Shown one piece after another: positions 123-37,645 of a stretch of 64,000 nucleotides of DNA (within the stretch, counting starts at the first letter, position 1; each line of letters starts with the position of its first letter). The translations under genes and the position numbers were made by a program. Origin of the DNA: Verrucomicrobiota bacterium (lineage in GTDB: Bacteria > Verrucomicrobiota > Verrucomicrobiia > Limisphaerales > UBA11358); the NCBI GenBank assembly GCA_036803685.1, contig DAIRTX010000001.1:6766-70765 (forward strand), read 5' to 3'. The notes beneath the pieces are model-generated. The model searched no databases, had not been told where the DNA came from, and saw nothing but the letters and a program-made list of their open reading frames with translations.

Positions 123-130
123 TTTTGCGG

Positions 131-184
131 CACAGGCTTCCAGCCTGTGATTTGGTTTAATTTCCCACAGGCTGGAAGCCTGTA
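131..184. repeat. Two inverted copies of a 19-nt palindromic unit (cacaggcttccagcctgtg / cacaggctggaagcctgta). The first probably terminates the upstream + gene.
   Basis: 131-149 forms a 7-bp stem (cacaggc/gcctgtg) with a 5-nt loop, followed by atttggtttaattt. 166-184 is its reverse-complement variant and lies inside the last codons of the convergent DUF2851 gene. Confidence 0.6.
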
Positions 185-1614
185 CCACTATTCCAACCGC
201 GCACCAGTTCCGGGAACCGGCAATGTTCGCAGATCGCATTCGAGTGTTCGCAAAAGTCGCGCGTGATTTGAATCAAACCCTGTTGCGCTGAAGCGCTCCG
301 CAACACGCGGCTTCGCCCAACACCCAACAAACGCTGACGCGCCAATTTCAAAATGGAATTGTCTTCCGCCTGCGGCCAGGCGGCGTAGCGGTGTTCAATG
401 ACCCGCTGGAGCCTTCCATTTTTACCTTCGGCGGCGCGCGTCCAAAGCCACGGCAGAATCACGTTCACCGCCAAATCCGTCACCCGCGCATCACCCAACA
501 GCGGTTGCGGCTTTTTCAGCCGCGCCGAGCGGAACGTCCAGTGCCACGACCAAAATTCGTCGCGTTCCACTTCAAAAATTTCCCGCAGCGAACCGGGCAA
601 CATTTTGTCCGGCAATTCCCGGGCGCACCAGTTTTCGAGTTTTTGAATCAAATGGTCCGCCGCCAGCCAATGCGCCGCCAGCGCGAGCCGGCGTTGGGGA
701 TGATTTGCCGGACGCAATCCGTGAAATTTCCAGACGGCGCGCGGCAGAATGCAATCGCTGAACGCATCGCGTTCCCGCCACCAGCAATCCCAGACGCGAC
801 GCAGATAACCCTCGCTGCCCGCCTGCGCCCGGGTCAGTTCCGCCGGCAGCAAACCGCTGATGCCGAGCAGCCGGGCTTGAAGTGCGAAAGCCGGGTCCGC
901 GCCGGGCGTCCAGCGCAAACGTGATTCGGCAAGATTTTGCATCGGCCAGATGTTGTGTTTATAGCCGAGCGCGCGGAACAAGCCTTCCCACAGCGCCTGC
1001 TCCCAGCCGGCGTGCCGGGCGCGGGCGCGAAATTGTCCGGCTTTGGCTTGAAAACGAACGCGTGCGGCAGAGTCCAAAATTTTGCTTTGTCGCGTTTCAT
1101 CCAATTCGCGCAACACCACGCAACATTGGCCGCGCAAATTTTCGGGCAGGACGCGCGGTGATTCGTTTTCCAGCCACAAGCCGAGTTCGCCCAACGGCGC
1201 GTCCAGCGAATGGCTCAACGGCAAAACTGGAGGCGCATTTGGCATTGGCCGCGCGTCGTCCCAAACGACGTGAAGCAGGACGTTTTTAAAATTCGGGTTG
1301 CGGTCGTGACCGTGGGCGCGCCAGCCGCCGGCGCGCAGGTCAATCTCCACGTCACCGGAACGCGGCGCGGCGTCGCCGATTTGAATGACCGCGCCGCGAA
1401 AATCCGGCCCGCCTTCGACACTCACAAAACCGGGATGCAAAATGCGAACGGCCTGTCCATCAGCGGTCCGGAGCTGGTCGCGGCGGAGGCGTTGATGGCG
1501 CCAGATGGCCTGCAGGAGGCGTTCGGGCGGCGCCTCCTTTTCGTCGCGCAGGACGTTCCCCGGTCCATCCGGCATTCGCCAGCGGGCGTAAAAATTTTCA
1601 GGCGGCGGAGACAC
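157..1614 (-). CDS. DUF2851 family protein
   Basis: 485-aa ORF. The N-terminal region (LLQAIWRHQRL...ILHPGF.N.GPDF...A.I.I......GDVEIH...S.W..HGH) matches my memory of DUF2851. Overlapping ORFs in other frames are low-complexity shadows. Confidence 0.7.
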   Translation of the reverse strand: MSPPPENFYARWRMPDGPGNVLRDEKEAPPERLLQAIWRHQRLRRDQLRTADGQAVRILHPGFVSVEGGPDFRGAVIQIGDAAPRSGDVEIDLRAGGWRAHGHDRNPNFKNVLLHVVWDDARPMPNAPPVLPLSHSLDAPLGELGLWLENESPRVLPENLRGQCCVVLRELDETRQSKILDSAARVRFQAKAGQFRARARHAGWEQALWEGLFRALGYKHNIWPMQNLAESRLRWTPGADPAFALQARLLGISGLLPAELTRAQAGSEGYLRRVWDCWWRERDAFSDCILPRAVWKFHGLRPANHPQRRLALAAHWLAADHLIQKLENWCARELPDKMLPGSLREIFEVERDEFWSWHWTFRSARLKKPQPLLGDARVTDLAVNVILPWLWTRAAEGKNGRLQRVIEHRYAAWPQAEDNSILKLARQRLLGVGRSRVLRSASAQQGLIQITRDFCEHSNAICEHCRFPELVRGWNSGTGFQPVGN

Positions 1615-22029: not shown

Positions 22030-23574
22030 ATGTATTCACCGACCCCGGATGAATTTTTGAAGCTGGCCGCGCAGGGCAATGTGATTCCCATCACACGCCG
22101 CCTGCTGGCCGACATCGAAACGCCGCTTTCGGCCTACCGAAAAATCCGCGGCGCGGGCGAATCGTTTTTGTTCGAATCGGTCGAAGGCGGCGAGCATCTC
22201 GGGCGCTATTCGTTCGTTGGTTGCAATCCGCGCGCGGTCATCAAGCAAACCGGCAATCGCGTCGAAGTCATTGAAAATGGGAAGGTTGTCGAAAGTTTTA
22301 ACGTTGGTAGGGACGCGCTGCCGCGCGTCCAGATCCCGCAATGCGGGACCGGCCCTACCGTCCGCGACGGTCTGGCGGTCGTCGAGCGCGTGATGAAAAA
22401 ATATCGCGCGGTCCTGCTGCCGGGTTTGCCGCGTTTCACCGGCGGCGCCATCGGTTTCATCGGCTACGAATTCATTCACGACGTTGAACCCGTCGTGCCG
22501 CGCCCGCCCAAGGACGAATTGCAAACGCCCACCATGGTTTTTCTCATCGCCGACCAATTACTGATTTTTGACCGGGTGGCACAGACCATCACCGTCTTGG
22601 TCAACGCCTTTCTCGACGGCGCAGCGGGGCCGGCCGAGGTTTACGAAGATGCCGTCGGCGAAATTGAGCGGCTTGTTTCGTTGCTCGAACAGCCGAGCGA
22701 ACACCATCCGGTCAGCCTGCCGGGCGAAGTGCCGCCGGTGCCATTTGAGTCGAACGTCACCAAGGAGAAGTTTTTTGCGAACGTGCTCAAAGCCAAGGAA
22801 TACATCACGGCGGGCGACATCATCCAGGTCGTCGGTTCGCAACGGTTTTCCACGCCGGTGAAGGCGTCGCCGATTGATGTTTATCGCGCCGTGCGTTCGG
22901 TGAATCCGTCGCCCTACATGTTTTTGCTGGAATTGGACGGCTTTTCGCTCGTGGGCGCTTCACCGGAAATTCACGTGCGCTGCGAGGACGGCAGGGTGGA
23001 AATCCGTCCCATCGCCGGCACGCGCCGTCGCGGCAAAACACCGGAGGAAGACGCTACGCTCGAAAAGGAATTGCTGGCCGACCCGAAGGAACGTGCCGAG
23101 CACGTGATGCTCGTGGATCTGGCGCGCAACGACATCGGGCGCGTGTGCGATTTCGGCAGCGTGCGGGTGAAGGACCTGATGATCATTGAGCGTTACAGCC
23201 ACGTCATGCACATTGTGTCGCAGGTGGAAGGCAAACTTTCCGCCGACAAGACGCTTTACGATTTGATGCGCGCGACGTTTCCGGCGGGCACGGTCAGCGG
23301 CGCCCCGAAAATCCGCGCGATGCAGATTATTTCCGAGCTCGAACAGACCACCCGCGGACCGTACGGCGGCTGCGTCGGTTATTTTTCGTTCAACGGCAAT
23401 CTCGACACGTGCATCACCATCCGTACCGCGCTACTCAAGGACGGCAAAGCTTACGTGCAGGCCGGGGGCGGCTGGGTCAGCGATTCGACGCCCGAAGGCG
23501 AATTTCAGGAAACCGTCAACAAATCCAAGGCCATGCTCAAGGCCGTGGCGATGGCGGAAGGATTCGCGCGCTGA
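22030..23574 (+). CDS. trpE: Anthranilate synthase component I
   Basis: Chorismate-binding core ([62 protein letters not shown]). Carries an 18-codon in-frame repeat insertion at 22306-22359. Confidence 0.95.
22306..22359. repeat. 54-bp nested-hairpin REP-like element, copy 1 (inside trpE, in frame)
   Basis: GGTAGGGACGCGCTGCCGCGCGTCCAGATCCCGCAATGCGGGACCGGCCCTACC. Outer stem GGTAGGG/CCCTACC. Inner hairpins GGACGCGC-tgcc-GCGCGTCC and TCCCGCA-a-TGCGGGA. 51/54 identical to 36513-36566. Confidence 0.9.
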
Positions 23575-31314: not shown

Positions 31315-34300
31315 ATGCCGCAACCCGTTCCAATCATGAAACCCGCGACCGGCGAACGCCTCGTGCGTTTCGTCGGCGACCGCATCCGTTTCACGCTCCA
31401 CGACGGCAGCGGGCGCAACGGCTGGCGCGCTTTGCTCCGCACCAATCTCGGTCGCGCCGCAGCGCTCCGGCGCGAAATCATCGCCGCGCACGCCGGCGGC
31501 CCGGTTCACGCCGGCGAATCCTGGCGCGACGTGCCGATGCAACAAAACGGCGATGCCTGGCAAATCGAATTGCCGCTCGCTGAAGCCGGCTTCTTCAAAG
31601 CCAAAGCGTATCTGCTCGACCCGAAAGGCTGGCAGCATTGGCCCGATGGCCAGGACGTCGGCATCAGTGTTCATCCCAATTTTGCCCGCACCGCCAATAC
31701 AATTTATTGCGCCTTCACCCGACTTTTTGGTGCGACGAAAAATTTGTCATCCCCGCGCGACAAAAAACTCGAAGTTCAACTCCAGCAGCTCGATGAAAAA
31801 AACTTCACCGTCATTCCACCCTCCGGCAAGCTCCGCGATCTGGCCCGCCAGTTGCCGCACATCGTCCAAACGCTTGGTTGCCGTATCATTCATTTGCTGC
31901 CGATTCATCCCACGCCCACAACTTTCGCGCGCTTTGGGCGTTTTGGCAGCCCGTATGCCGCGCTGGACCTGACCGCGATTGATCCGGCACTCGTCGAATT
32001 CGACAAACGCACCACCGGGGTGGATCAATTTTGCGAATTCACCCATGCCGCGCACTCGCTCGGCGCACGGGTGTTCCTTGACATCGTCATCAACCACACC
32101 GGTTGGGGCGCGGCCTTGCAGGAAAATCATCCCGAATTTTTTCTGCGAAACTCCGACGGCACATTCGCCAGCCCCGGCGCCTGGGGCACAATCTGGGAAG
32201 ACCTCGTCGAATTGAAACAGGATGATGTCGCGCTGTGGGACAAAATCGCCGACGCGCTTTTAATCTGGTGCCGTCGCGGCGTGGATGGTTTTCGTTGTGA
32301 CGCCGGCTACAAAATTCCCGTGCCCGCCTGGCAATACATCATCGCCCGTGTGCAGGACGAATTTTCCGAAACCATCTTCCTGCTCGAAGGACTCGGCGGC
32401 CCGTGGGAAGCCACCGAAAATTTGCTCACCGACGGTGAAATGCAATGGGCTTACTCCGAACTTTTCCAAAATTACTCCGGCCGCCAGATCGCCGACTACC
32501 TCGACTACGCCAATCGCCAGAGTTCGCGCGTCGGCACCTACGTTCATTACAGCGAGACCCACGACAACGACCGCCTGGCCGCCCGCGGGCGCGCGTGGTC
32601 GCTGTTGCGAAACCGACTTTGCGCGCTGACCAGTGTGAGCGGTGGTTTTGGTTTCACCGGGGGTGTCGAATGGCTCGCCACGGAAAAAATCAAAGTCCAC
32701 GGCTGTGCCGGCCTCGCGTGGGACAACCCGGACAACATCGTTTCCGAACTCGCGCAACTCAACTGTCTGCTCGCCGACCACCCGTGCTTTTTCGACGGCG
32801 CAAAACTCACGCGACTCAGCACGCCCGACTCGCCGGTTTATGCGCTGCTTCGCGAATCCGTCCCGCAGTTGCGGGACAAGGATTCTGTGCTGGTTCTGGT
32901 CAACCCCGATGTCGAAAAAACAAATTCGTTCACGCTCGCGGTCTCCGATGTCAAATCTCCAATTTCAGATTTCAAATTCGATTTGCTCGGCCAGCCGCCG
33001 CCAAAGACTGACGTCACAAAAGATAAAATTACTTTCACGCTCGCACCCGGCGCGTGCCATTGCCTCGCACCCACGGCAGAGCCGCAAGGTTTGAGCGGCG
33101 ATGCTTACCGTCGCGCCCGCGCGCAAGCCGCCTGGGCGCTCGAAGCACTGGGTAAAATCGTGCCGGTCGAAACGATTGACGGCCTCGACTGGCGCTGGTT
33201 CGCCGGACAAGTCGAGCGTTCGCCGGCCAATTTTCTTGCCGCCGCCAGTGAATTTGCCACGCGTGGCTCAAAATCTTCCCTGGTCGAACTGTTACGTGAC
33301 GCGGAACAACAAAAAAATTTCCCGCGCGTCATCATCTGGACTTTGCTCGACCACCGCCGCGTGACGCTGGTCCCGCCCGGCCATTGGCTGCTCATCCAGG
33401 ACAGTGCTCCCTTCCGGGCCACACTGCAAATGCAGAATGCGGAATGCGGAATGCAGAATGAAAACGGGCGTGCCGAACATGTCCAATCCATCGCTGTAGC
33501 TGACGGACACATTGCCTGTTTTGCGCCGCGCAAAACGGCGACTGATGCTGAATTAATTTTGGAACGTTATGCCACCGCATCGCAGCAGGTGACAGGCGCG
33601 GTTCGATTTCTCCCGGCCGAACCGGCCGGCCCGAAATCCAAGACCCAAAATCCGAGACCCGAAGATGTAGTTTTGCTCACCAACGGCATCGGCGGCATGG
33701 CGCGGCTCTGCGTGGACTTGGGCCGTGTGAATTCCAAATACGACTGCGTGCTCGGCGCAAACCTGAACTCCAGCGTCCCGGTGGATCGTCATGTCTTTGT
33801 CAAACGCCTCCGGGCATGGGTCAATGCCAACGGCTTCCTTTCACCGCTCAACGTGAAAAATCTCGCGTCGTTTGCCGCCGGTCCGCCAGCCGTCTGGCAG
33901 TTTGTCGCCAATGCCGGCGACGGGCGGACGGTCGAAATCGAGTTGCGCGCCGAAATGCTCGAAGGGGAAAATGCAACGGTGTTTCATTTTGCCCGACCGA
34001 CGGCCGAACGCGCGTGCGGCAAACAATTGCCCGCCGACGCCGACGTTCGCCTGACGGTGCGTTTCGACATCGAAGACCGGAATTTTCATTGGGAAACCAA
34101 ACGCAACGGCGGCGCGGAACATCATTTTTCCACAAACACGCACGAATTATCCGAGGTAGGGCGCGTCACTCCGTGCGCGCCGCAGTTGAATGAAGGCGAA
34201 CGGCGCGCACGGAGTAACTCGCCCGACCAGAAGATTGGCTTCGCCTTCACGCCCGCACCCGACCGCCAATTGCGCGCGTTTGCCAACGCGGGCGAATATC

Positions 34301-35910
34301 ATCCGCAACCGGAATGGTGCGAAAACATCCCGCACCCGGTCGAACAAAGCCGTGGCCAGACCGGCAGCGGCGACGCCTACAGTCCGGGCTGGTTTGAGAT
34401 TCCGCTGCCCAAGGGCGCAAACGTCATGCTCGTGGCCACGGCGGAAACGACCGGTTTGCCGCCTTCGGAATTTCAAATTTTTGATTTGGAACTGGAAATG
34501 GCGAAAACCGGCGACGCCTTCGGCAACCAACTTTTGCGCGCCTCCAGACAATTCGTCGTCCGGCGCGGCAAAGGCAAAACCGTCATCGCCGGTTATCCGT
34601 GGTTTTTGGACTGGGGCCGCGACACGTTCATTGCCTGTCGCGGTTTGCTCGCCGCCGGAATGATTGACGAAGTAAGGCAAATTTTGCTCGCGTTCGCGAA
34701 ATTCGAGAAGGACGGCACGCTGCCCAACGCCATTTTCGGCGACAACGCCTCCAACCACGACACCTCCGACGCGCCGTTGTGGTTCGCTCTCGTGTGCGAA
34801 GAATTTGCTGATCTTGGGAGGGACGGCGTGCCGCCGTCTCTGACTTCATCCAAAAAAATGGGACGCCGACACGGCGTCCCTCCCACCGATGATTTTTATT
34901 CCGTATTGGTTGATGAAAATGGGCGCACAATCCGCGATGTGTTGTTCAGCATTGCCGTGAATTACGCGAAGGGCACGCCGAACGGCATCCGCATGGACGC
35001 CGATTCCGCGTTGATCTGGAGTCCGGCTCATTTCACCTGGATGGACACGAACCATCCCGCTGGCACGCCGCGCGAAGGGTATCCGGTGGAAATTCAAGCT
35101 CTGTGGATCCGTCTCTTGCGTCAGCTTGAAAAAATCAGCGCGACTGGAAGTGCCACCGGGCAACGAGGCGGAAAATCGTTTGGAGTTACGCCTTCAGGCG
35201 GCAAGGCTGCGAATGAACACCAAGGCCGCGTAAACGCGGAACTCCAAACGGTGTCAGCCGAACAAAAAAAATGGCGCGATCTTGCCGACCGCGCACTGGC
35301 CTCGCTCGAAAAATTTTTCTGGCTCGAAGACAAGGGCTGGCCGGCTGACGTGCTGCTGGCCAAACCCGGTGTCGCTGCTCGCGAAGCCACCCCCGACGAC
35401 GCGCTCCGCGGCAATTATCTGTTTGCCGTCAGCCTCGGACTCGTGACCGGCGAACGCGCCAAACGCTGTGTTGAGGTGGCGCAAAAATATCTGGTTGTGC
35501 CTGGTGCGTTGCGGTCACTCGCGCCATTGCCGGTTTCGGTCCCGCTGCCGATCTGGCGCGATGGCCAACTGCTCAACAACCCCATCGAGCCCTATTGGCC
35601 GCATTACGAAGGTGACGAGGACACGCGCCGCAAACCGGCCTATCACAACGGCACGGCGTGGACGTGGACGTTTCCGGTTTTTTGCGAAGCGCTCGCGCGC
35701 GCGTGGTCCCGCGATGCGGGAGCGGCGGAAGCCGTCGCGGCGGCGAAAGCGTATTTGGGCAGCGTGGAGCAATTGCTGAACGAAGGCTGCCTCGGCCAGA
35801 TTCCGGAAATTCTGGATGGCGACGCGCCACACGCACAACGCGGTTGTGACGCACAGGCGTGGGGCGTGACCGAGGCGTTGCGCGTGTGGAGATTGTTGTC
35901 GAAATTGTAG
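31315..35910 (+). CDS. 1531-aa fusion enzyme: GlgE-like N-domain + GH13 alpha-amylase-family catalytic domain + GDE_N/GDE_C amylo-alpha-1,6-glucosidase (glycogen debranching type)
   Basis: GH13 regions FLDIVINHTG, GFRCDAGYKIP, FLLEGLGG, HYSETHDND. GDE_N-like VVLLTNGIGGMARL. GDE_C motifs GYPWFLDWGRDTFIA, TSDAPLWF, FTWMDT...PREGYPVEIQALW, AYHNGTAWTWTFPVF, CDAQAWGVTEALR. The start could also be Met8 (31336). Confidence 0.9.
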   Translation: MPQPVPIMKPATGERLVRFVGDRIRFTLHDGSGRNGWRALLRTNLGRAAALRREIIAAHAGGPVHAGESWRDVPMQQNGDAWQIELPLAEAGFFKAKAYLLDPKGWQHWPDGQDVGISVHPNFARTANTIYCAFTRLFGATKNLSSPRDKKLEVQLQQLDEKNFTVIPPSGKLRDLARQLPHIVQTLGCRIIHLLPIHPTPTTFARFGRFGSPYAALDLTAIDPALVEFDKRTTGVDQFCEFTHAAHSLGARVFLDIVINHTGWGAALQENHPEFFLRNSDGTFASPGAWGTIWEDLVELKQDDVALWDKIADALLIWCRRGVDGFRCDAGYKIPVPAWQYIIARVQDEFSETIFLLEGLGGPWEATENLLTDGEMQWAYSELFQNYSGRQIADYLDYANRQSSRVGTYVHYSETHDNDRLAARGRAWSLLRNRLCALTSVSGGFGFTGGVEWLATEKIKVHGCAGLAWDNPDNIVSELAQLNCLLADHPCFFDGAKLTRLSTPDSPVYALLRESVPQLRDKDSVLVLVNPDVEKTNSFTLAVSDVKSPISDFKFDLLGQPPPKTDVTKDKITFTLAPGACHCLAPTAEPQGLSGDAYRRARAQAAWALEALGKIVPVETIDGLDWRWFAGQVERSPANFLAAASEFATRGSKSSLVELLRDAEQQKNFPRVIIWTLLDHRRVTLVPPGHWLLIQDSAPFRATLQMQNAECGMQNENGRAEHVQSIAVADGHIACFAPRKTATDAELILERYATASQQVTGAVRFLPAEPAGPKSKTQNPRPEDVVLLTNGIGGMARLCVDLGRVNSKYDCVLGANLNSSVPVDRHVFVKRLRAWVNANGFLSPLNVKNLASFAAGPPAVWQFVANAGDGRTVEIELRAEMLEGENATVFHFARPTAERACGKQLPADADVRLTVRFDIEDRNFHWETKRNGGAEHHFSTNTHELSEVGRVTPCAPQLNEGERRARSNSPDQKIGFAFTPAPDRQLRAFANAGEYHPQPEWCENIPHPVEQSRGQTGSGDAYSPGWFEIPLPKGANVMLVATAETTGLPPSEFQIFDLELEMAKTGDAFGNQLLRASRQFVVRRGKGKTVIAGYPWFLDWGRDTFIACRGLLAAGMIDEVRQILLAFAKFEKDGTLPNAIFGDNASNHDTSDAPLWFALVCEEFADLGRDGVPPSLTSSKKMGRRHGVPPTDDFYSVLVDENGRTIRDVLFSIAVNYAKGTPNGIRMDADSALIWSPAHFTWMDTNHPAGTPREGYPVEIQALWIRLLRQLEKISATGSATGQRGGKSFGVTPSGGKAANEHQGRVNAELQTVSAEQKKWRDLADRALASLEKFFWLEDKGWPADVLLAKPGVAAREATPDDALRGNYLFAVSLGLVTGERAKRCVEVAQKYLVVPGALRSLAPLPVSVPLPIWRDGQLLNNPIEPYWPHYEGDEDTRRKPAYHNGTAWTWTFPVFCEALARAWSRDAGAAEAVAAAKAYLGSVEQLLNEGCLGQIPEILDGDAPHAQRGCDAQAWGVTEALRVWRLLSKL
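33432..33459. repeat. Heptanucleotide tandem array inside the debranching-enzyme CDS (GCAGAAT GCGGAAT GCGGAAT GCAGAAT)
   Basis: Read directly from the sequence. Encodes QNAECGMQN. Confidence 0.8.
34155..34228. repeat. 74-bp inverted-repeat (hairpin) element embedded in frame in the debranching-enzyme CDS
   Basis: Left arm GGTAGGGCGCGTCACTCCGTGCGCGCCG. The right arm's reverse complement is GGTCGGGCGAGTTACTCCGTGCGCGCCG (25/28 match). 18-nt spacer. Shares the GGTAGGG(A)CGCG core with the 54-bp element. Confidence 0.8.
34815..34885. repeat. 71-bp double-hairpin element embedded in the debranching-enzyme CDS
   Basis: Terminal arms TGGGAGGGACGGCGTG / CACGGCGTCCCTCCCA (15/16 complementary). Internal hairpins GACGGCG-tgc-CGCCGTC and GGGACGCCG-aca-CGGCGTCCC. 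Encodes LGRDGVPPSLTSSKKMGRRHGVPPT between conserved GDE_C blocks. Confidence 0.8.
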
Positions 35911-36022: not shown

Positions 36023-36508
36023 GTGAACTTCCGTGAGAAAATCATTGCGTGGGACAAATTGCCAGAGTGGCGGGCGGTCATGCGCGCCAGTGGCAGGAAA
36101 CTGGTCGTCACCAACGGCTGTTTCGACATCCTGCATCTGGGTCATGTGACCTACCTCGAATCGGCGCGCCGTTTCGGAGACGCGCTGCTCGTCGGTGTCA
36201 ACGGCGATGACGCAACGCGGCAGTTGAAGGGTTCGGGGCGACCGGTAAATGTCGAAGCCGACCGCGCCGCTGTGCTCGCCGCACTGGCGAGCGTGGACGG
36301 GGTTTGCGTTTTTGCGGAAAAGACCGCCACGAAATTCCTTTCGGCCGCCAAACCCGATATTTACGTCAAAGGTGGCGATTACACCCTGGACACGTTGAAT
36401 CAGGACGAACGGCGCGCGGTGGAGTCGACGGGCGGGAAAATCGTCATCATCCCATTTGTGCCGGGCAAATCCACGACGGCGTTGCTCGAAAAAATTTCAC
36501 GGCTGTGA
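36023..36508 (+). CDS. hldC: D-glycero-beta-D-manno-heptose 1-phosphate adenylyltransferase (RfaE domain II only)
   Basis: GRKLVVTNGCFDILHLGHVTYLESARRFGDALLVGVNGDDATRQLKGSGRPVN...KGGDY is the cytidylyltransferase-like HldC/RfaE-II signature. GTG start. No fused kinase domain. Confidence 0.9.
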   Translation: MNFREKIIAWDKLPEWRAVMRASGRKLVVTNGCFDILHLGHVTYLESARRFGDALLVGVNGDDATRQLKGSGRPVNVEADRAAVLAALASVDGVCVFAEKTATKFLSAAKPDIYVKGGDYTLDTLNQDERRAVESTGGKIVIIPFVPGKSTTALLEKISRL

Positions 36509-36512
36509 AAAT

Positions 36513-36566
36513 GGTAGGGACGCGCTGCCGCGCGTCCAGGTCCCGCAATGCGGGATCAGCCCTACC
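36513..36566. repeat. 54-bp nested-hairpin REP-like element, copy 2 (intergenic, hldC to GT9)
   Basis: GGTAGGGACGCGCTGCCGCGCGTCCAGGTCCCGCAATGCGGGATCAGCCCTACC. Begins 4 nt after the hldC stop codon and ends 14 nt before the GT9 ATG. Confidence 0.9.
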
Positions 36567-36580
36567 AAGAATTGCAACAA

Positions 36581-37645
36581 ATGAAAATTCTGGTCATTTC
36601 GCTCGCGGGTATCGGCGACACGCTGCTGGCCACGCCATTGATTCACGAACTGCGCGCGAATTTTCCCGACGCGACCATTGACGCGTTCGCGCTTTGGAAC
36701 GGCTCGAGGGGTTTGCTGGAAAACAATCCGCACCTGAACCGCGTCCATCAAAAAAACCTGATGCAATGCGGCAAGCTGGAGGCACTGCGGTTTCTCTGGA
36801 GTCTGCGGCGGGAGCATTACGACTTTTCCATCAACACGCATCCACAAAGCCGGATTCATTATCGTGTGACAGCGCGTATCGTCGGCGCAGCGACACGTAT
36901 CAGCCATGAATACGAATGTTTCGGCGCGCTCGACCGCTGGTTGGTGAACCGCACGTTGCCGCAGGATTACACCCGGCACTCGATTGAAAATAATTTCGCC
37001 GTGCTGCCGTTGCTCGGTGCGCAGATAAAACTGCCGGCGCATCAAATTGAAGTTTTTTTGACGGCGGACGAGGAACAATGGGCGGATGATTTTCTCGCCC
37101 GGCACAAACTCGCAGGACAAAAATTGCTCGGCGTTCACGCCGGTTCCGGCGGCACGAAAAATCTGCCGCTGAAGCGCTGGCCATTAAAAAACTACGCGGG
37201 GTTGGTCCGGCGATTGACCGGCGAGCGGTCTGACATTCGCATGCTTTTGTTTGGCGGACCGGAGGAGGTCAAAGACCATGAAGTGATTTTGGCGCAAGGC
37301 AATTTGGGGCGTGTGCTGCAAGCCAACACAAAAAATTTGCGGCAGACGGCGGCATTGATGAAACGTTGCAGCGCATTTTTGAGCGTGGATACGGCTTTGA
37401 TGCACTTGGCTGCCGCAATGAAAGTGCCGAAACAAATCGTCATCGAAGCGCCGACGCTGAACGTGACCAACTTTCCTTACGGTAATCCGTTCACACTCGT
37501 GAAAAATCCCGTCGTGAACGGGCGCGGACTGGATTACTACCGTTACGACGGTGGCGACATTAAAGGCACACGCGAAGAATTGTTGGCGTGCATGGCATCG
37601 GTGACGGTTGAAAGTGTTTTCGACACGATCAACAAACTGATTTAA
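36581..37645 (+). CDS. Glycosyltransferase family 9 (ADP-heptose:LPS heptosyltransferase-like)
   Basis: MKILVISLAGIGDTLLATPLIHELR and GVHAGSGG....KRWP...Y..L are typical of GT9. I prefer the start at 36581; the listed upstream ATG (36548) lies inside the repeat element. Confidence 0.9.
   Translation: MKILVISLAGIGDTLLATPLIHELRANFPDATIDAFALWNGSRGLLENNPHLNRVHQKNLMQCGKLEALRFLWSLRREHYDFSINTHPQSRIHYRVTARIVGAATRISHEYECFGALDRWLVNRTLPQDYTRHSIENNFAVLPLLGAQIKLPAHQIEVFLTADEEQWADDFLARHKLAGQKLLGVHAGSGGTKNLPLKRWPLKNYAGLVRRLTGERSDIRMLLFGGPEEVKDHEVILAQGNLGRVLQANTKNLRQTAALMKRCSAFLSVDTALMHLAAAMKVPKQIVIEAPTLNVTNFPYGNPFTLVKNPVVNGRGLDYYRYDGGDIKGTREELLACMASVTVESVFDTINKLI

Follow-up and report, generated by a model that had tools for sequence, protein, structure and literature searches.

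An in-frame heterodimer of GTAG-tagged palindromic repeats in trpE of a Verrucomicrobiota bacterium, at a junction occupied by unrelated palindromes in close orthologues

The element described in this report is a 54-bp palindromic repeat that lies in frame inside trpE, the gene for anthranilate synthase component I, of a Verrucomicrobiota bacterium. The DNA that was analyzed, here called the window, is a stretch of 64,000 nucleotides (assembly GCA_036803685.1, contig DAIRTX010000001.1, positions 6,766 to 70,765 of the forward strand). The element is a tail-to-tail heterodimer of GTAG-tagged repetitive extragenic palindromes (REPs), a non-autonomous small palindromic repeat, and by alignment it is a lineage-specific insertion into a TrpE loop whose usual length is about 3 residues. 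Among 120 trpE orthologues, this junction holds palindromes of at least seven families that are unrelated in sequence. The element belongs to a known kind, the in-frame intragenic GTAG REPs, and it resembles the Rickettsia palindromic elements (RPEs) in behavior without being one of them. Our favored reading, which we consider probable, is that it is a selfish dimer, one family among several at a trpE insertion hot spot, spread among strains by recombination and encoding a passenger peptide.

Anatomy and fold of the element

A search of the window placed the 54-mer, GGTAGGGACGCGCTGCCGCGCGTCCAGATCCCGCAATGCGGGACCGGCCCTACC, at exactly 22306-22359 on the + strand and found a second copy, identical at 51 of 54 positions (3 mismatches), at 36513-36566 on the same strand; by comparison with 100 dinucleotide-preserving shuffles, no such match is expected by chance. 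The gene and the parts of the element are as follows.

22030-23574, + strand: trpE, anthranilate synthase component I, 514 aa, intact; assigned by Pfam and a match to 5CWA; under purifying selection whatever the insert allele
22306-22359, + strand: 54-bp palindromic element, called type a; TrpE residues 93-110; tail-to-tail dimer of two different GTAG-tagged hairpins
22306-22330, + strand: REP module 1; GGTAG tag, stem GGACGCGC (22311-22318), loop TGCC, stem GCGCGTCC (22323-22330)
22334-22359, - strand: REP module 2; GGTAG tag, GGCCGG, stem TCCCGC, loop ATT, stem GCGGGA (hairpin otherwise written TCCCGC-AAT-GCGGGA)

Both window copies, on either strand, fold into an outer stem that encloses two hairpins, with energies of -31 to -36 kcal/mol (z of -3.3 to -4.4) that none of 200 shuffles matched. 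The hairpins have stems of 8 bp and 6-8 bp and loops of 4 and 3 nt, within the dimensions of GTAG-REP palindromes (stem of 5-13 bp, loop of 2-20 nt), and each hairpin has the tag GGTAG in front of it, on the + strand for hairpin 1 and on the - strand for hairpin 2. This placement of GGTAG before each hairpin on its own strand produces the 7-bp inverted termini GGTAGGG/CCCTACC. A preliminary description of the sequence had proposed a 54-bp nested-hairpin element with this outer stem, a near-identical copy between the hldC and GT9 genes, and hence one family in both coding and intergenic settings, and the search and the folding bear it out on each point.

The stems of the two hairpins are unrelated and complementarity is limited to the 7-bp termini, so the element is not a REPIN, which consists of two inverted copies of the same REP. 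Nor does it have the features of a miniature inverted-repeat transposable element (terminal inverted repeats of 15-30 bp, a target-site duplication, and origin from an insertion sequence): its termini are 7 bp long, there is no duplication, and no parent insertion sequence was seen.

The TrpE segment as an insertion

The trpE open reading frame (ORF) contains the Pfam domains Anth_synt_I_N (E=3e-35) and Chorismate_bind (E=2e-92), and its product matches the solved Mycobacterium tuberculosis TrpE (5CWA) at E=1.7e-119 over residues 6-513. As previously described, the element spans exactly 18 in-frame codons, which are codons 93-110 of the 514-aa ORF. We aligned the window TrpE with 139 diverse representatives at 43-55% identity; 124 of the 139 have 3 residues between the flanking strand and a DPL-type helix, and none of the 139 has a homologue of the insert. 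Distant TrpEs therefore do not carry these residues, and the close orthologue P0063 (locus L125) has an empty site with the short generic loop GKD, so the lineage specificity suggested in the preliminary description stands. Among the 120 orthologues at 85-100% identity, no internal indel occurs anywhere in the protein except at the insert site. It lies in a loop between a beta-strand (residues 85-92) and a helix; an AlphaFold2 model built from 65 close orthologues was poor (mean pLDDT of 45) and supports only this strand-coil-helix context.

A total of 11 contigs, drawn from NCBI, ENA, JGI, and Logan assemblies, encode the identical TrpE, so the insertion is not an assembly artefact, and the trpE junction with the element is also present in the independent metagenome contigs L147, L150, and L162. 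The insert is a multiple of three nucleotides long and free of stop codons in the phase used, and the encoded peptide is hydrophilic and rich in Gly, Pro, Arg, Asp, and Gln. Outside the insert, synonymous and non-synonymous codon differences number 20 and 3, respectively, against L130, and 114 and 27 against L125, the locus with the empty site; differences that are mostly synonymous indicate strong purifying selection and a trpE that is functional whatever it carries.

The trpE junction as an insertion hot spot

We tabulated the segment between ...VESFxV and V(R/K/H)... in the 120 orthologues, with the following insert types.

Type a: n=11, the window's 54-mer
Type b: n=51, a 51-nt dimer with module 1 in common with type a
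Type c: n=15-16, ARGTGFQPVSELKNGDRQDACPT
Type d-long: n~20, 36 residues
Type d-short: n=2, 10 residues
Type e: n=5, LTRPxDTLS..GEGRGEG
Type f: n=6, GRAGSPLPAA..APYQ
Type h: n=4, SPSDGERVAxPGEG
Composite (P0060/L128): n=1, 59 residues; an outer palindrome with further hairpins nested inside
Short loops (P0110, P0111, P0120): n=3, 11 residues, known from protein only
Empty (P0063/L125): n=1, GKD

The DNA of eleven alleles showed that each insert is a strong palindrome of a distinct family, from 30 to 168 nt long. The use of the trpE site by several families is a feature absent from the preliminary description. All sequenced inserts lie between the same Val/Ile codon and the next Val codon, and some alleles (L126 and L127) have a few extra flanking bases. 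The 30-nt type d allele is a collapsed form of the 108-nt one and still forms a perfect 12-bp hairpin.

The insert types are scattered across a TrpE tree built without the insert. P0014, with a type c insert, has a protein backbone 99.2% identical to that of the window, and the two flanks of the site in its gene (L130) are 98.4-98.5% identical in DNA to those of the window. The type d allele L131 is 98.7% identical to the window downstream of the site and 93.3% identical upstream, where its flank matches another type d allele; this recombination tract indicates that homologous recombination moves insert alleles between backbones.

Family size, distribution, and coding phase

A scan for module 1, made with an exact pattern and one genome per species and liable to under-sample degenerate intergenic copies, returned at least 117 genome loci, often several per metagenome-assembled genome (MAG; e.g., 7 in CAWDPX01), as expected of a dispersed multi-copy repeat. 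In the MAGs of Verrucomicrobiae/Limisphaerales, module 1 is usually partnered with a different second hairpin in a 51-nt dimer, type b (...CCNGGCCGACCGGCAGGTCGGCCCTACC). Module 1 is identical between type a and the commonest type b dimers, and the two types are told apart by module 2. Across 26 distinct type b copies, pairing holds in 98% of cells, and compensatory changes affect 5 pairs of hairpin 2, a number that none of 500 shuffles reached. A metagenome scan for module 2 gave 35 loci that reduce to about 14 distinct genomic sites, all with the same 54-nt type a dimer; these include trpE (L147, L150, and L162) and the hldC/GT9 spacer (L141, L151, L153, and L160). Further copies thus exist well beyond the window, for module 1 and for the full 54-mer alike.

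Module 1 lies inside long ORFs in 33-35 of 67 matches in Verrucomicrobia-labelled loci, compared with 8-10 of 57 in other phyla, and at least 26 of 32 of the 51-nt type b dimers lie inside long ORFs; these coding calls rest on ORF length, GC content at third codon positions, and Pfam (20 hosts) rather than on gene models. The family is therefore not predominantly extragenic. Copies embedded in ORFs measure 51, 54, 78, or 99 nt, and nearly all are read in the phase GGT AGG. This phase is used in either orientation, the peptide of one orientation being GRADLPVGQDAQQRVPT, and one copy, in a pseudouridine synthase, uses the other open phase. Copies whose length is not a multiple of three are mostly outside long ORFs; 3 of 14 were scored as coding, and the ends of the pattern were probably mis-set in those three. 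It is chiefly this joint constraint on length and phase that argues for translation of the inserts, as opposed to their removal from the mRNA.

Pfam domains lie around the element or on both sides of it in 19 of the 20 host ORFs scanned, consistent with RPE-like, in-frame insertion into otherwise intact and conserved genes. Hosts with Pfam support include DNA polymerase I (PolA), MutS, RecQ (with the element inside the zinc-binding domain), PurL, 5-enolpyruvylshikimate-3-phosphate (EPSP) synthase (AroA), a P-type ATPase, an ABC-F protein, a Nuo antiporter-like subunit, a flavoprotein of the dihydrolipoamide dehydrogenase type, an aminotransferase, the pseudouridine synthase, GH2, and GT9.

A hairpin of the form GGTAGGGACGCGC-loop-GCGCGTCC is also repeated in MAGs of other phyla, mostly in intergenic positions and in other arrangements: Chloroflexaceae F17_50 (L002, L011, L014, L024, L031-L033, L042, and L063), Acidobacteria BP6.bin107 (L007, L047, and L076), and "Duncaniella" SC0308_comb_2 (L012, L027, L046, L048, and L075). 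The acidobacterium has classic REPIN-like pairs, and L014:11-122 is a 29-nt tandem array. The presence of the hairpin in other phyla points to either convergence or transfer of a system of REPs and REP-associated tyrosine transposases (RAYTs). In a "Klebsiella" bin (L005, L057, and L078) and likewise in "Bifidobacterium/Bifidobacteriaceae" bins (L069, L082, L089, L108, and L111), the elements are inside genes typical of the Planctomycetes-Verrucomicrobia-Chlamydiae group (DUF7133 and PSCyt2/PSD1), and the gut and enteric labels of these co-assembly bins are probably wrong.

Types a and b at orthologous junctions

In three orthologous genes, the type a insert of the window's lineage and the type b insert of other lineages sit at precisely one and the same junction: trpE, aroA (L136, L157, and others compared with L022), and a GT9 gene (L154 compared with L088). 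Two further orthologues of the L154/L088 GT9 gene have no element. The two types have module 1 and the last 10 nt in common and second stems that are unrelated, which excludes parallel point mutation as the source of the difference; what remains is that insertion recurs at preferred junctions or that resident copies undergo conversion/replacement. A lineage-wide replacement of b by a is unsupported as stated, since two type b copies lie on type a contigs, and the presence of both types on some contigs means that there was no clean lineage-wide switch.

EPSP synthase is a second enzyme of the aromatic amino acid pathway with an in-frame insert. The 54-mer is found in its gene in L136, L139, L140, L157, and L166, and the 51-mer is found in L022, which is from another MAG.

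Candidate mobilizing enzymes

We used RAYT sequences and those of the related terminal inverted repeat-associated tyrosine transposases (TIRYTs), both from supplement 5 of PMC3733652, as phmmer queries against all ORFs of the window and of 129 loci. No Y1 transposase or RAYT was found among the window ORFs by this search, and four loci gave matches (L088, L056, L072, and L077). The protein of L088 and L056 has E. coli TnpA-REP (4ER8) as its only match among solved structures in PDB (E=1e-5), with the HUH and Tyr motifs aligned, and matches the Rhodopirellula RAYT RB11751 at E=1.6e-36; a Pfam Y1_Tnp search at E<0.001 did not detect it. It forms a genuine REPtron with inverted REPs on both sides.

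L088:3001-3862 and L056:2420-3412: RAYT homologue flanked on both sides by inverted GTAGCCGCCGACGTCAGTCGGCGC REPs

These GTAGCCGCCGACGTCAGTCGGCGC REPs are a GTAG family other than that of the window element. Type b dimers also occur near this RAYT, but we dropped the association because the two loci are orthologous, and so represent one event, and because the RAYT's own flanks are of another family. The L072 match, 4.5 kb away from the repeats, is a TIRYT-like gene. The GTAG-hairpin anatomy of the element, together with precedent, nonetheless suggests mobilization by a RAYT-type enzyme.

The fourth match is a separate observation. L077:1353-3815 (+ strand; PLQC01000009.1, Limisphaerales MAG bog_1460) is a threonyl-tRNA synthetase (thrS) ORF that contains a complete in-frame RAYT-like Y1 transposase, an insert of about 200-260 residues between ...ESMFPPMEL and YxLKAMNCP (proteins P0271-P0388). 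The nested RAYT is flanked by 43-nt inverted repeats that encode GSARVSRAVSGVAPETS / APRRDAEESTRDACAP. The same architecture is present in more than 50 protein clusters at 66-99% identity, on contigs of up to 2 Mb, and ThrRS orthologues that have no RAYT contain inserts of 20-120 residues in the same loop. The flanking repeat (peptide SGVAPET) also occurs inside the composite trpE allele. A literature search for a RAYT paired with threonyl-tRNA synthetase found no paper.

Comparison with known systems

The preliminary description took in-frame colonization of genes by palindromes to be rarely reported outside Rickettsia. The catalogue of Di Nocera, De Gregorio & Rocco (2013, BMC Genomics 14:522; PMC3733652) contradicts this: intragenic GTAG/CGTC REPs are described across many species, with the highest intragenic GTAG count in the verrucomicrobium Opitutus terrae, where GTAG-17 to -20 form in-frame inserts of 15-30 residues in known enzymes. 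DNA repair genes are enriched among the hosts of intragenic REPs, and Xanthomonas recB has different REPs at about the same site (PMC3733652). Like the O. terrae REPs, the window element comes from this phylum, has a GTAG tag beside a short GC-rich hairpin, and occurs in close dimers (those of O. terrae are tail-to-tail or head-to-head and 1-2 bp apart, and heterodimers are described). It differs from them in sequence and in bacterial order, the MAGs here being of the Limisphaerales type, and trpE is absent from the O. terrae host list (PMC3733652). REPs in general are mostly intergenic, whereas about half of the matches of the window family, and most of its 51-nt dimers, are intragenic.

RPEs likewise enter coding as well as non-coding DNA and persist in frame, within functional genes, as extra peptide segments. 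The parallel drawn in the preliminary description is apt as a statement of how the element works, not of family membership. RPE-1 is longer than the window element. RPEs are alphaproteobacterial families, and RPE-4 and RPE-6 have a CGTC tag (PMC3733652), whereas the window element has GTAG; judged by this tag and by its verrucomicrobial host, it is not an RPE. In R. felis, 85 of 728 RPEs are within ORFs (PMC1166351), a much lower share than in the window family.

In REPIN-RAYT systems (Bertels & Rainey 2011; bioRxiv 10.1101/2021.07.10.451892), GTAG REPs are paired in inverted orientation and are presumed to be copied by the RAYT, and RAYT homologues are present in related genomes here. Unlike REPINs, the window element has two different hairpins, is 51-54 bp long in its two types, and is mostly intragenic. 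In combining REPs of different types in alternating orientation, it resembles the bacterial interspersed mosaic elements (BIMEs) of E. coli, the REP Y/Z mosaics. BIMEs lie outside genes, contain defined linker motifs, and are bound by IHF and gyrase.

Three observations go beyond the literature examined: intragenic, phase-locked copies predominate; unrelated palindromes of at least seven families form an allelic series at a single codon junction in near-identical strains; and types a and b replace each other at orthologous junctions. Few bacterial routes add new peptide segments to old enzymes, and in-frame palindromic repeats are among them; their arrival route and ongoing movement have so far been hard to study. 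The trpE junction is a natural experiment in this respect, with an empty site, a set of unrelated palindromes, and collapsed and nested derivatives, on backbones of up to 98.4% DNA identity from related peat metagenomes, the window's host being a peat-soil Verrucomicrobium. The series makes it possible to measure rates of insertion, replacement, and recombination as well as protein tolerance and, with a RAYT assay, to address mechanism.

Origin of the insert and alternative explanations

If the element is a selfish REP-type dimer, a RAYT-type HUH tyrosine transposase, acting in trans, would copy it by way of single-stranded hairpin intermediates. Insertions would land widely, and selection would retain only those copies that are a multiple of three in length, stop-free, and in permissive surface loops, with the inserted peptide a passenger that has no function of its own. 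A site with a resident palindrome may be likelier to be hit again or converted than to be cleanly emptied, which would explain type a replacing type b at three orthologous sites. Several points weigh against this account. No target-site duplication or clear target motif was found at any examined copy, and the junctions show only a bias to a pyrimidine at -1 and a purine at +1. No RAYT in the window or the 129 loci is flanked by the window element's repeat, and those that were found adjoin other repeats. That families with unrelated ends use precisely one junction is more than transposase specificity alone can explain. Translation of the insert is argued from frame constraints and not from proteomics; exposure of the loop at the protein surface is argued from its tolerance of 0 to 59 unrelated residues rather than from coordinates, given the poor AlphaFold model. 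Finally, 112 of the 120 orthologues have some palindrome at the site, which could also mean that selection favors a hairpin at this position of trpE.

Such selection, with any strong palindrome serving as an RNA or DNA signal (for translational pausing between folding units, mRNA processing or stabilization, or as a protein-binding or topological site), would fit this near-universal occupancy by differing families, the covariation of the stems, and the perfect 12-bp hairpin that the collapsed 30-nt type d allele retains. We nevertheless judge it unlikely: the same elements are found, in either orientation, in intergenic spacers and in dozens of genes with no relation to one another, the empty-site orthologue and the three short, apparently non-palindromic loops are under the same purifying selection, an Rfam scan of the window gave no family at the gathering score, and stem covariation and palindrome shortening are expected of REPs that have no host function. 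Slightly better placed, although still improbable, is a dedicated landing pad at which resident palindromes are actively swapped at fixed junctions by a hairpin-recognizing (RAYT-type) enzyme or by gene conversion. The a/b replacement at exact junctions in three genes, with module 1 and the last 10 nt identical, speaks for such a pad, as do the number of families at trpE, the nested composite allele, and the different inserts on backbones 98.4% identical in DNA; yet between-strain recombination accounts for much of the scatter, the extra bases in L126 and L127 show that junctions are not always nucleotide-identical, types a and b are together on some contigs, and no enzyme is linked to the type a/b family. 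That the peptide was recruited for a protein role, such as TrpE-TrpG assembly or tryptophan feedback, with adaptive variation among strains, is very unlikely. The insert does lie within the N-terminal regulatory domain of TrpE, and there is a strong preference for phase 0 above the other open phase, but the peptides found there have unrelated sequences and lengths anywhere from 0 to 59 residues, the same peptide is found in unrelated enzymes, and no motif is conserved beyond the residues that the palindrome dictates.

The least probable alternative is an artefact or a chance likeness, i.e., a chimeric assembly or an ancestral loop of TrpE with a fortuitous resemblance to an intergenic sequence. 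HMMER did align part of the insert with GGDPLRALQV of M. tuberculosis TrpE, but this pairing is spurious, since the broad alignment matches the DPL helix to RDGLAVV, which lies downstream of the insert. The shuffles, the identical gene on 11 contigs from four sources, the dozens of further copies, and the broad alignment together refute this reading. The selfish dimer may in turn be part of something larger, a REP/RAYT system that is essentially intragenic in these Verrucomicrobiota, with dimers at fixed junctions of housekeeping genes and repeated, cassette-like replacement by palindromes of other families at landing pads such as the trpE loop, in a single-strand process targeted to hairpins. 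We regard this extension as speculative and rather doubtful; if it were true, the in-frame RAYT inside the essential thrS would mean that the whole system is inherited by hiding in indispensable genes.

The intergenic copy and other palindromes of the window

The second copy of the 54-mer lies in a short spacer between two co-directional genes.

36023-36508, + strand: cytidylyltransferase-like gene (hldC/RfaE-II type), by Pfam; upstream of the intergenic copy
36513-36566, + strand: intergenic copy (51/54) in the 74-nt spacer; the same site is filled in the four spacer loci named above
36583-37645, + strand: GT9 heptosyltransferase gene, by Pfam; downstream of the intergenic copy

The copy starts 4 nt past the stop codon of the cytidylyltransferase-like gene and ends 16 nt ahead of the likely GT9 ATG (36583). 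An ATG at 36548 (ATGCGGGATCAG...), inside the copy, lengthens the GT9 ORF by 12 codons in the ORF list and is probably not the true start. Elements of the type a family can thus create spurious starts and short hypothetical ORFs, and annotators should expect such elements to split profile alignments as well.

A palindrome at window positions 129-186, GGCACAGGCTTCCAGCCTGTG...CACAGGCTGGAAGCCTGTACC, apparently after a stop codon, resembles the type c hairpins of trpE alleles in sister strains; at least one alternative trpE family would therefore also be resident in the window's genome.

The ORF at 31315-35910, a 1531-aa amylase/glycogen-debranching fusion, contains three more strong in-frame palindromes, which are of other families.

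34155-34228: in-frame palindrome, peptide VGRVTPCAPQ..RRARSNSPDQ
34815-34885: in-frame palindrome, peptide GRDGVPPS..GRRHGVPPT
35177-35250: in-frame palindrome, peptide SFGVTPSGG..RVNAELQT

The GDE_N and GDE_C Pfam matches in this ORF are stretched by about 36 and about 80 residues, respectively.

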